A stretch of DNA of 9,863 nt, from the IMG/VR virus record IMGVR_UViG_2711768003_000003; one strand, 5' to 3'. Below, one piece after another: positions 5,754 through 6,102 of the stretch. The translations under genes were made by a program, and so were the position numbers. A model generated the notes under the pieces. That model did not search any database. It saw only the letters and a list, made by a program, of their open reading frames with translations, and was not told the origin of the DNA. Source of the stretch: a virus. Lineage: Duplodnaviria; Heunggongvirae; Uroviricota; Caudoviricetes. Every line of letters starts with the position of its first letter. Position 1 is the stretch's first letter.

Positions 5754-5828
5754 TGGAGCGGGCAGCGGGAATCGAACCCGCATCATCAGCTTGGAAGGCT
5801 GAGGTAATAGCCATTATACGATGCCCGC
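5754..5828 (-). tRNA. tRNA-Gly (anticodon UCC)
   Basis: Hand-folded 75-nt cloverleaf GCGGGCATCGTATAATGGCTATTACCTCAGCCTTCCAAGCTGATGATGCGGGTTCGATTCCCGCTGCCCGCTCCA. Acceptor GCGGGCA/TGCCCGC, anticodon loop CTTCCAA, T-arm GCGGG-TTCGATT-CCCGC, discriminator U, encoded CCA. Resembles host tRNA-Gly2 by recollection. Confidence 0.85.
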
Positions 5829-5831
5829 ATA

Positions 5832-5907
5832 TGGTGCCGACTACCGGAATCGAACTGGTGACCTACTGATTACAAGTCAGTTGCTCTGCCTGCTGAGCTA
5901 AGTCGGC
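5832..5907 (-). tRNA. tRNA-Thr (anticodon UGU)
   Basis: 76-nt cloverleaf GCCGACTTAGCTCAGCAGGCAGAGCAACTGACTTGTAATCAGTAGGTCACCAGTTCGATTCCGGTAGTCGGCACCA. Anticodon stem ACTGA/TCAGT, loop CTTGTAA; T-stem has one A-C mismatch; encoded CCA. Confidence 0.75.
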
Positions 5908-5909
5908 GC

Positions 5910-5986
5910 TGGCCCACCACCGAGGACTCGAACCTCGCACCGTCAACTTAGAAGGTTGATGCTCTATCCGGATGAGCTAGTGGTGG
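5910..5986 (-). tRNA. tRNA-Arg (anticodon UCU)
   Basis: 77-nt cloverleaf CCACCACTAGCTCATCCGGATAGAGCATCAACCTTCTAAGTTGACGGTGCGAGGTTCGAGTCCTCGGTGGTGGGCCA. Anticodon stem TCAAC/GTTGA, loop CTTCTAA, T-arm CGAGG-TTCGAGT-CCTCG, encoded CCA. Resembles the argN/argO class of lambdoid-phage tRNAs. Confidence 0.8.
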
Positions 5987-5987
5987 T

Positions 5988-6064
5988 TGGTGGCCCTTGC
6001 TGGACTTGAACCAGCGACCTGGCGATTATGAGTCGCTCGCTCTGACCAACTGAGCTAAAGGGCC
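5988..6064 (-). tRNA. tRNA-Ile2-like (anticodon CAU, probably lysidine-modified to read AUA; elongator Met not excluded)
   Basis: 77-nt cloverleaf GGCCCTTTAGCTCAGTTGGTCAGAGCGAGCGACTCATAATCGCCAGGTCGCTGGTTCAAGTCCAGCAAGGGCCACCA. Anticodon loop CTCATAA; overall close to my recollection of E. coli ileX, and to ileZ of Stx phages. Confidence 0.8.
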
Positions 6065-6073
6065 GGAGGCAGA

Positions 6074-6102
6074 ATAATAACCATATGTCATCACATCTGC
6101 AA
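6074..6102 (-). promoter_or_regulatory. Candidate sigma70 promoter immediately upstream of the tRNA cluster
   Basis: Minus strand: -35 TTGCAG (6102-6097), 17-nt spacer, -10 TATTAT (6079-6074). The predicted start falls a few nt before the first tRNA 5' end (6064). Confidence 0.35.

Follow-up and report, generated by a model that had tools for sequence, protein, structure and literature searches.

A 9,863-nucleotide (nt) stretch of DNA from a tailed virus (IMG/VR record IMGVR_UViG_2711768003_000003, Caudoviricetes), referred to below as the window, carries a compact array of four tRNA genes for isoleucine, arginine, threonine and glycine. On the reading that we favor, whose chances we judge about even, this array is a self-contained tRNA "moron" in a lambdoid prophage (a phiP27/Sf-type mosaic) of Shigella or enteroinvasive-type Escherichia coli (EIEC), supplying four minor tRNAs. 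All four genes are intact. The array is a chimera: Ile and Arg belong to phage lineages (ileZ and the argN scaffold, respectively), and the Thr and Gly genes are copies of host genes. It is real, recurrent and already present in public annotation, and it does not form a new category.

tRNA genes were called over the whole window with ARAGORN and with the Rfam covariance model RF00005 (gathering score 29 bits). ARAGORN found exactly four, all on the minus strand, and RF00005 agreed with each call above its gathering score (E-values ≤ 3e-10). The tRNA-Ile2 gene (anticodon CAU, ileZ type, labeled Met by ARAGORN) lies at 5988-6064 (70.5 bits), tRNA-Arg (UCU, on a phage argN-type scaffold) at 5910-5986 (56.4 bits), tRNA-Thr (UGU, derived from host thrU) at 5832-5907 (69.8 bits) and tRNA-Gly (UCC, equal to host glyT) at 5754-5828 (64.9 bits). 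A first-pass annotation of this DNA, made from the letters alone, had claimed four cloverleaf tRNAs with these anticodons, separated by 1-3 nt and all with an encoded CCA. Each of these points held up, with the Ile gene being the one labeled Met/Ile: in minus-strand order the array reads Ile-A-Arg-GC-Thr-TAT-Gly (spacers of 1, 2, and 3 nt), and CCA is encoded at the 3' end of every gene. We add to that description that the whole array is on the minus strand. The anticodon loops of the four tRNAs are identical at 7/7 nt to those of host ileX/ileY, argU, thrU and glyT.

Relatives of each gene were compared pairwise among K-12 genes, Shiga toxin (Stx) phage genes and sister arrays of the order Ile-Lys(UUU)-Thr-Gly, in which the second gene position (slot 2) is occupied by a tRNA-Lys. 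The tRNA-Ile is 96% identical to Stx-phage ileZ, 92% to K-12 ileY and 90% to ileX. Its acceptor strand 5' GGCCCUU pairs with AAGGGCC, and the pairs C4-G69 and C5-G68, which are TilS determinants, are present. An identical sequence in E. coli VL40 is annotated as tRNA-Ile by PGAP (RefSeq). The CAU anticodon, the acceptor pairs and the closeness to ileX, ileY and ileZ are the sequence features of the tRNA-Ile2 class, and we assign the gene to this lysidine-dependent class and not to tRNA-Met; conversion of its C34 to lysidine and its charging with isoleucine are predicted.

The odd C1-G72 start noted earlier for the tRNA-Arg was confirmed from the gene ends (CCACCAC at 5' and GUGGUGG-G-CCA at 3'), which also give G73 as the discriminator. 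This gene is 86% identical to the tRNA-Lys(UUU) in the same slot of the sister arrays, 83% to the argN gene of Stx phages (anticodon UCG) and only 73% to argU of the host. Its D-loop, AUCCGGAUA, has A20 as in argU, and its anticodon loop CUUCUAA is that of argU; A20 and C35 are identity elements for arginyl-tRNA synthetase. By these marks the gene qualifies as a tRNA-Arg(UCU) that reads AGA, with its charging predicted. In an alignment of slot-2 scaffold members A3-U71 alternates with G3-C71, a compensatory change that supports a functional acceptor stem.

The tRNA-Thr matches K-12 thrU at 74 of 76 positions (97%). Only two D-loop positions differ (U16C and U20C); its anticodon arm, ACUGA/CUUGUAA/UCAGU, is unchanged from host thrU. 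Over the window and the IMG/VR loci, D-loop positions 16 and 20 are the only recurrent differences between phage Thr genes and thrU, with UU, CC, CU, and UC all found; both positions are dihydrouridine sites in many tRNAs. The tRNA-Gly had been described as host-like in the first-pass annotation, and it proved identical to K-12 glyT over 75/75 nt. The host alignments suggested at that stage (glyT, thrU, ileX and argU) thus gave 100%, 74/76, 90% and 73% identity.

A promoter belonging to the array had been suspected, and a sigma-70-type element was found immediately upstream at 6065-6102 on the minus strand, with -35 TTGCAG (6102-6097), a 17-nt spacer and -10 TATTAT (6079-6074). The promoter scan matched 6103-6074. 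A GC-rich discriminator, TCTGCCTCC, at 6073-6065 abuts the +1 of tRNA-Ile and resembles that of the host thrU promoter. We aligned this region from nine diverged ileZ-led lineages (the window, PhiR47_1, an Stx2a phage, a prophage of enterotoxigenic E. coli (ETEC) and five IMG/VR types). TTGC and TAT..T were invariant and the spacing was free of insertions and deletions; the spacer and the upstream sequence varied. From this conservation, which gives good comparative support, we infer a real and active promoter of the stable-RNA type. The Thr-Gly-only arrays and the Asn-Thr array of phage 21 are without this element and adjoin a terminator hairpin; they are presumably purely dependent on the late antiterminator Q.

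The distribution of the array was surveyed in 5,426 complete E. coli genomes, in one-per-species representative genomes and in an IMG/VR sample of at least 120 loci with the Thr-Gly junction. The exact Arg allele with its junctions was present in 10 of the E. coli genomes, where it is already annotated and occupies as many as five sites per genome; a recognizable version of this array was present in 27, and the phage-type junction around Thr (the Thr-TAT-Gly core) in 862 (16%). Of the species representatives, just two had the Arg-Thr junction, Shigella flexneri SFBU1023 and E. coli ECMA0423, with three copies each. The IMG/VR sample contained at least 49 Thr-Gly, about 37-41 Ile-Lys-Thr-Gly and at least 14 Ile-Arg-Thr-Gly arrays, and 12 of the 14 Ile-Arg-Thr-Gly loci listed match the window in all four genes. 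Three IMG/VR loci (L017, L082 and L105) are 100% identical to the window over 5691-9863 (L105 from 5753). Strains with the array seem to be Shigella or EIEC-like; the ten E. coli carriers include the EIEC strain CFSAN029787. Genomes that carry the array have it at 3-6 places, within differing prophage contexts. At the module edges (~6164-6236 and 5691) the homology between carriers ends, and the flanks differ. In all arrays examined the Thr-TAT-Gly unit is the same in two- and four-gene arrays, and a single origin of the unit is therefore indicated. A literature search returned no relevant publication on a lambdoid Ile-Arg-Thr-Gly array; ileZ, argN and argO together gave no full-text match, and ileZ alone gave no paper in a broader search.

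If the array supplies minor tRNAs, its stable-RNA-style promoter would drive transcription in the lysogen. Induction would make transcription much stronger: Q-modified RNA polymerase would pass the tR'-like terminator and continue through the array to the lysis genes, and amplification of the phage genome would add to this. RNase P would cut each 5' end in the polycistronic precursor, host exonucleases would trim the 1-3 nt trailers past CCA, and host enzymes would modify and charge the products like their chromosomal counterparts. Anticodon loops identical to those of the host are expected if the tRNAs are modified and used like host tRNAs. The pools raised would be Ile2 (AUA), Arg4-type (AGA/AGG), Thr4-type (ACA) and Gly2-type (GGA/GGG). 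Since each of these isoacceptors comes from one or two chromosomal genes, extra copies would shift its pool proportionally more than that of a major tRNA, and AUA, AGA, ACA and GGA, used 2-4 times more in phage genes than in the host, would be decoded faster.

Codon counts were made in the 11 genes of the window and in 48 annotated K-12 genes. Per 1000 codons, AUA occurs 2.7 times in K-12 and 6.3 times in the window (2.4-fold), AGA 1.2 and 5.1 times (4.1-fold), ACA 4.9 and 14.6 times (3.0-fold) and GGA 6.7 and 11.1 times (1.7-fold). When all codons are ranked by enrichment in the window, AGA is 1st, ACA 4th, AUA 7th, and GGA 11th. The statement in the first-pass annotation that the four codons are rare or under-used in E. 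coli is thus correct (1.2-6.7 per 1000 in K-12 genes), and the codon count that it had suggested shows all four enriched, by 1.7-4.1-fold. In a second comparison one crude open reading frame (ORF) caller was used for both phage and host, and 66-377 deduplicated ORFs flanking related arrays were counted; the excess of AUA, AGA, ACA and GGA was 2-3-fold. AGA was slightly higher near Arg-type than near Lys-type arrays (odds ratio 1.37, from non-independent data).

Several observations weigh against supply of scarce codons. Thr-Gly-only loci and phage 21 (Asn-Thr) use AUA and AGA equally often without having Ile and Arg tRNAs, so codon usage does not explain tRNA content. A published comparison detected no difference in codon adaptation between lambdoid phages that have tRNA genes and those that do not (PMC4631060). 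The tRNA-Lys(UUU) in slot 2 of the sister arrays reads the abundant codon AAA, which is not enriched near these arrays, and rarity therefore cannot account for the whole family. Several copies of the array in Shigella/EIEC-like genomes are visibly decaying; selection has therefore not always been strong. The codon supplementation put forward in the first-pass annotation stands in one part: the cognate codons are commoner in the phage than in the host, but they are equally so in lambdoid phages without these tRNAs, and the presence of a tRNA does not track the use of its codon among relatives. We concluded that a demand for these tRNAs exists, yet codon usage leaves the choice of tRNAs in each phage unexplained.

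Phage tRNAs with anticodon-loop mutations reportedly evade anticodon nucleases, as described by van den Berg et al. in 2023. In the window all four loops are those of the host, and evasion of that kind is not seen. The other hypothesis of the first-pass annotation was protection from anticodon nucleases: tRNAs destroyed by prophage- or satellite-borne tRNases during lambdoid replication would be replenished, and late translation could be completed. We consider it a rather doubtful explanation for this array, though still a serious rival to minor-tRNA supply. The candidate tRNases are P2 OLD, PARIS AriB and HepS, perhaps joined by unknown enzymes that attack Arg(UCU), Gly(UCC) or Ile2. The main target of P2-OLD, and the lethal one in P2-lambda interference, is host tRNA-Thr(UGU), which the enzyme cuts at paired CNG motifs of the anticodon stem; phage tRNA-Thr(UGU) genes rescue from P2-OLD, including that of lambdoid phage 21, located at the same genomic position as the array studied here (PMC12445682). 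In Lys(UUU), Thr(UGU) and Asn(GUU) the site cut by AriB is U36AAUC|A41 (PMC12409363); phage 21 carries Asn and Thr, and the sister arrays Lys and Thr. Thr tRNAs are also cut by HepS of Gifsy-1, for which Thr(UGU) is a secondary target (PMC13043305). The sister-array Lys(UUU), which reads a common codon and shares the C1-G72 scaffold of the window Arg, always has G39, and C33 in place of the near-universal U33 (L009 5209-5285, L002 4158-4234 and many other IMG/VR loci, such as L011 and L012), and the AriB site is absent from it. In the window the two host-derived tRNAs, Thr and Gly, carry paired CNG motifs (28-30 and 40-42) and A37, the mark of an OLD substrate, and Ile and Arg do not; replenishment would also address a choice of tRNAs that codon usage leaves unexplained. 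However, resistance to OLD required an altered CNG motif plus a shortened stem, and over-expression of host tRNA-ThrU gave little or no protection (PMC12445682). The window Thr keeps CUG/CAG in a 5-bp stem (ACUGA/UCAGU, as in thrU), unlike the anti-OLD tRNAs of the Thr6/Thr21 type (PMC12445682), and it keeps U36AAUCA41, the AriB site, whose loss (through a change at U39 or A41, for instance) would mark an AriB-resistant tRNA. With the host anticodon arm retained, resistance of this tRNA to OLD or PARIS is not predicted. The Gly gene is the host gene unchanged; Ile2 and Arg(UCU) are not reported nuclease targets, and Gly is unmentioned in the main text of PMC12445682. A Thr allele with G42U and U43C occurs in an array whose Gly is broken and may be a product of decay; the sister-array Lys(UUU) is more suggestive of counter-defence than this allele. 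What stands of replenishment is thus that Thr(UGU) is a target of OLD, AriB and HepS; the tRNAs of the window keep host loops, and Thr and Gly keep host stems. The case for counter-defence is stronger in other members of the family than in these host-type alleles. A wider form of the idea, which we hold to be quite unlikely, is that the slot between Q and the holin gene serves as a modular "tRNA insurance" cassette, the contents of which follow the tRNAs attacked by resident tRNases (OLD, PARIS, HepS and others), and that slot 2 is a phage-specific, nuclease-insensitive scaffold (C1-G72) with an anticodon point-switched among UCG, UCU and UUU. If this were true, Arg(UCU) on that scaffold, along with Ile2 and Gly(UCC), would hint at enterobacterial nucleases, as yet unknown, that act on minor tRNAs, and U16C/U20C in Thr would be distal resistance determinants.

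Two other explanations bear on the persistence of the array. A role in lysogenic conversion, which seems unlikely to us, would consist in a constitutive supply of minor tRNAs that aids translation of AT-rich acquired genes (Shigella/EIEC virulence genes) and so preserves the array, even where the prophage is defective. In favor are the putative Q-independent promoter of the array and its occurrence at 3-6 places in carrier genomes; S. flexneri SFBU1023 and E. coli ECMA0423 are the only species representatives with it, and the EIEC strain CFSAN029787 is among the E. coli carriers. The restricted distribution is, however, explained equally well by phage host range, and decaying copies lie in those same Shigella/EIEC-like genomes. 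We find it improbable that the array is a largely neutral passenger, a recombination-mobile module hitch-hiking in the hot spot between Q and the holin gene, even though homology breaks at its edges with different flanks, many singleton point variants and broken copies occur, and many lambdoid phages are without any tRNA. All four genes are base-identical and cloverleaf-perfect in at least 12 IMG/VR loci and in 10 E. coli genomes, the promoter motifs TTGC and TAT..T do not vary between lineages with diverged spacers, compensatory acceptor-stem changes are present in the Arg scaffold, and the Thr-TAT-Gly core is found in 862 of 5,426 E. coli genomes.

Variant and decaying copies were seen in Thr, Gly and slot 2. 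The G42U/U43C allele of tRNA-Thr(UGU) was found in L001 (6133-6208), L139 (1518-1593) and L019, and G42C/U43C in L024. These changes shorten the anticodon stem and abolish the 3' CNG motif, as do changes reported to confer resistance to P2-OLD. The same EIEC-like genomes contain both this allele and the host-type one (8 vs. 9 of the 5,426). We considered G42U/U43C Thr, as found in E. coli VL40 and RMDEC332, as an adaptive OLD-resistant allele and downgraded it, because the Gly of its array is broken and other copies have acceptor-stem deletions; judged from these sequences, decay is at least as likely as adaptation. The broken Gly copy in RMDEC332 has a mutated loop and no CCA. L139 contains at 1444-1514 a decayed glyT-derived gene, with loop CUUACAG and no CCA, that is annotated as tRNA-Val. 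Thr copies in L136 (4173-4246; S. flexneri SFBU1023) and L138 (6256-6329; E. coli ECMA0423) have decayed by a deletion that affects the 3' strand of the acceptor stem. A slot-2 sub-lineage in L015, L064 and L087 has 5-nt anticodon loops, genes of 73-74 nt and its own promoter variant; these are non-canonical tRNA-like genes or pseudogenes. ARAGORN calls of Leu(taa), Phe(aaa) and "???" could be taken for free switching of the slot-2 anticodon, which we rejected because of the 5-nt anticodon loops. UCG, UCU and UUU are the only credible slot-2 anticodon variants.

All credible genes in the window are on the minus strand, and the prophage backbone is a phiP27/SfII/SfIV-like mosaic. The order of transcription is a DnaB-like helicase gene, RusA, Q, a block of ~1 kb, the pR'-like/terminator unit, the tRNA promoter, the tRNAs, a run of N, and then the holin, lysis and packaging genes. 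The first-pass placement of the array between Q and the lysis genes is correct in that sense, but Q is not adjacent, with ~1 kb and the pR'-like/tR' unit intervening. Q lies at 7298-7705 on the minus strand (Pfam PF06530, E = 2.7e-52). A candidate late promoter pR' (TTTACG-16-TATCCT) at 6209-6236 on the minus strand would feed a short terminated leader; it matches 8/12 consensus positions, below the scan threshold. It is homologous to a segment that begins ~30 nt past the Q stop codon in VL40, where a Q gene 82% identical to that of the window is 199 nt from the same array. The terminator scan detected a tR'-like intrinsic terminator at 6147-6178 on the minus strand (AAACCCGCC-GATGAG-CGGGTTT followed by a T-run), and the tRNA array begins ~85 nt downstream of it. 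This terminator is kept downstream of Q in VL40, with changes only in the loop region. VL40 and the window share 172 nt upstream of tRNA-Ile, comprising the candidate pR', the short leader and the terminator. Based on this shared segment, the isrK/C4/antirepressor block in the window separates Q from its probable pR'-tR' unit.

The block between Q and the pR'-like/tR' unit, at 6254-7293 on the minus strand, is P1 immI-like and is absent from VL40. Its minus strand carries a promoter-like site, TTGACC-18-TATATT (7293-7264), Rfam matches to c4-a1b1 (7270-7218), isrK (7257-7181, 77.5 bits), C4 antisense RNA (7155-7072) and sRNA-Xcc1 (6938-6855), and an ORF6N antirepressor-like ORF (7015-6254). 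RMDEC332 has another terminator hairpin in front of its array and is homologous to the window from the T-run of that hairpin onward, which identifies the array as a separate module positioned behind tR'.

Downstream of tRNA-Gly, 354 N at 5337-5690 mask the DNA up to the holin gene. In L034, an IMG/VR locus 99.9% identical to the window, the equivalent stretch is 661 nt long (6195-6855) and includes a long hairpin at 6243-6337; no convincing ORF was present in this stretch, and an Rfam scan of it gave no family above threshold. The contigs L017 and L082 break off within the equivalent stretch, suggesting that a repeat or faulty assembly is involved. No toxin gene is visible in the window, with the 354 nt masked. 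The first late gene downstream of the array encodes a class II (S21-like) holin, identified by translation and by VL40 homologs annotated as class II holin; its 3' part is at 5165-5336 on the minus strand, and its 5' end is masked by the N-run. It is followed on the same strand by lysozyme (4668-5165, PF00959), Rz (4207-4683) and Rz1 embedded in Rz (4269-4451), and past these by HNH, TerS, TerL, and portal genes. The HNH endonuclease gene is directly upstream of the P27-family small terminase gene (3814-4164 and 3198-3701), and this is a usual pairing of packaging genes.

tRNA genes in lambdoid late regions have been known since the Stx phages, and the array described here is an uncommon version, of chimeric composition, of this well-known phage cargo. 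It offers a natural test case of whether the tRNAs of temperate phages serve codon supply or defense evasion. One constant locus holds interchangeable cassettes, namely the host-type Thr-Gly pair, the scaffold with UCG, UCU or UUU, and the diverged Asn-Thr pair of phage 21. Thr(UGU) and Lys(UUU) are tRNAs cut by P2-OLD/PARIS, and the allelic series bears on host-type dosage versus resistant alleles. The presence of multiple copies in Shigella/EIEC-like genomes is a possible link to expression of AT-rich virulence genes.

The Stx-phage cluster is known from the annotation of its record (AP012530) and from general background. The ileZ-argN-argO trio of Stx2a_F349 (AP012530; 933W/Sakai type) is found in the same slot, with Q upstream of it and cargo and lysis genes downstream. 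The Ile of the window is 96% identical to ileZ, its Arg is on the argN scaffold (83%, C1-G72), and the Stx array promoter, TTGCAA-17-TATTAT with a GC-rich discriminator, has the same architecture. The window thus shares with ileZ-type late clusters the location, ileZ as the first gene and the promoter, but not the composition Ile-Arg(UCG)-Arg(UCU): its argN scaffold has UCU, no argO-type gene is present, and Thr-Gly is appended. The contrast with the Stx trio drawn in the first-pass annotation agrees with the annotation of the Stx2a record. Closest in order is the sister Ile-Lys(UUU)-Thr-Gly array of PhiR47_1, vB_EcoS-689R5 and ETEC prophages, which has the same spacers, core, ileZ-type start, promoter, and slot-2 scaffold. 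It differs in the slot-2 anticodon, UUU with C33 and G39 instead of UCU, and is ~3 times commoner than the type found in the window among the IMG/VR loci listed.

The K-12 operon thrU-tyrU-glyT-thrT-tufB is the source of Thr (97%) and Gly (100%), which keep the same relative order; tyrU, thrT and all spacers of the host operon are missing from the phage unit. Phage T4 has eight tRNAs, including Ile (CAU), Arg (UCU), Thr (UGU) and Gly (UCC), all reading A-ending codons. The Thr and Gly tRNAs of T4-like phages are ~82% identical to the window pair. T4 differs in being virulent and AT-rich, with diverged tRNAs, four further tRNAs and no Q/tR' context. The Asn(GUU)-Thr(UGU) array of phage 21, between tR' and S21, has the same late-operon position, with Thr(UGU) common to both arrays and an S21-type holin gene downstream, but it lies directly against tR' and lacks a separate promoter. 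The phage 21 Thr, with the arm GUCGC/GCGAA, has diverged strongly from thrU and protects against P2-OLD (PMC12445682), whereas the Thr of the window is of the host type.

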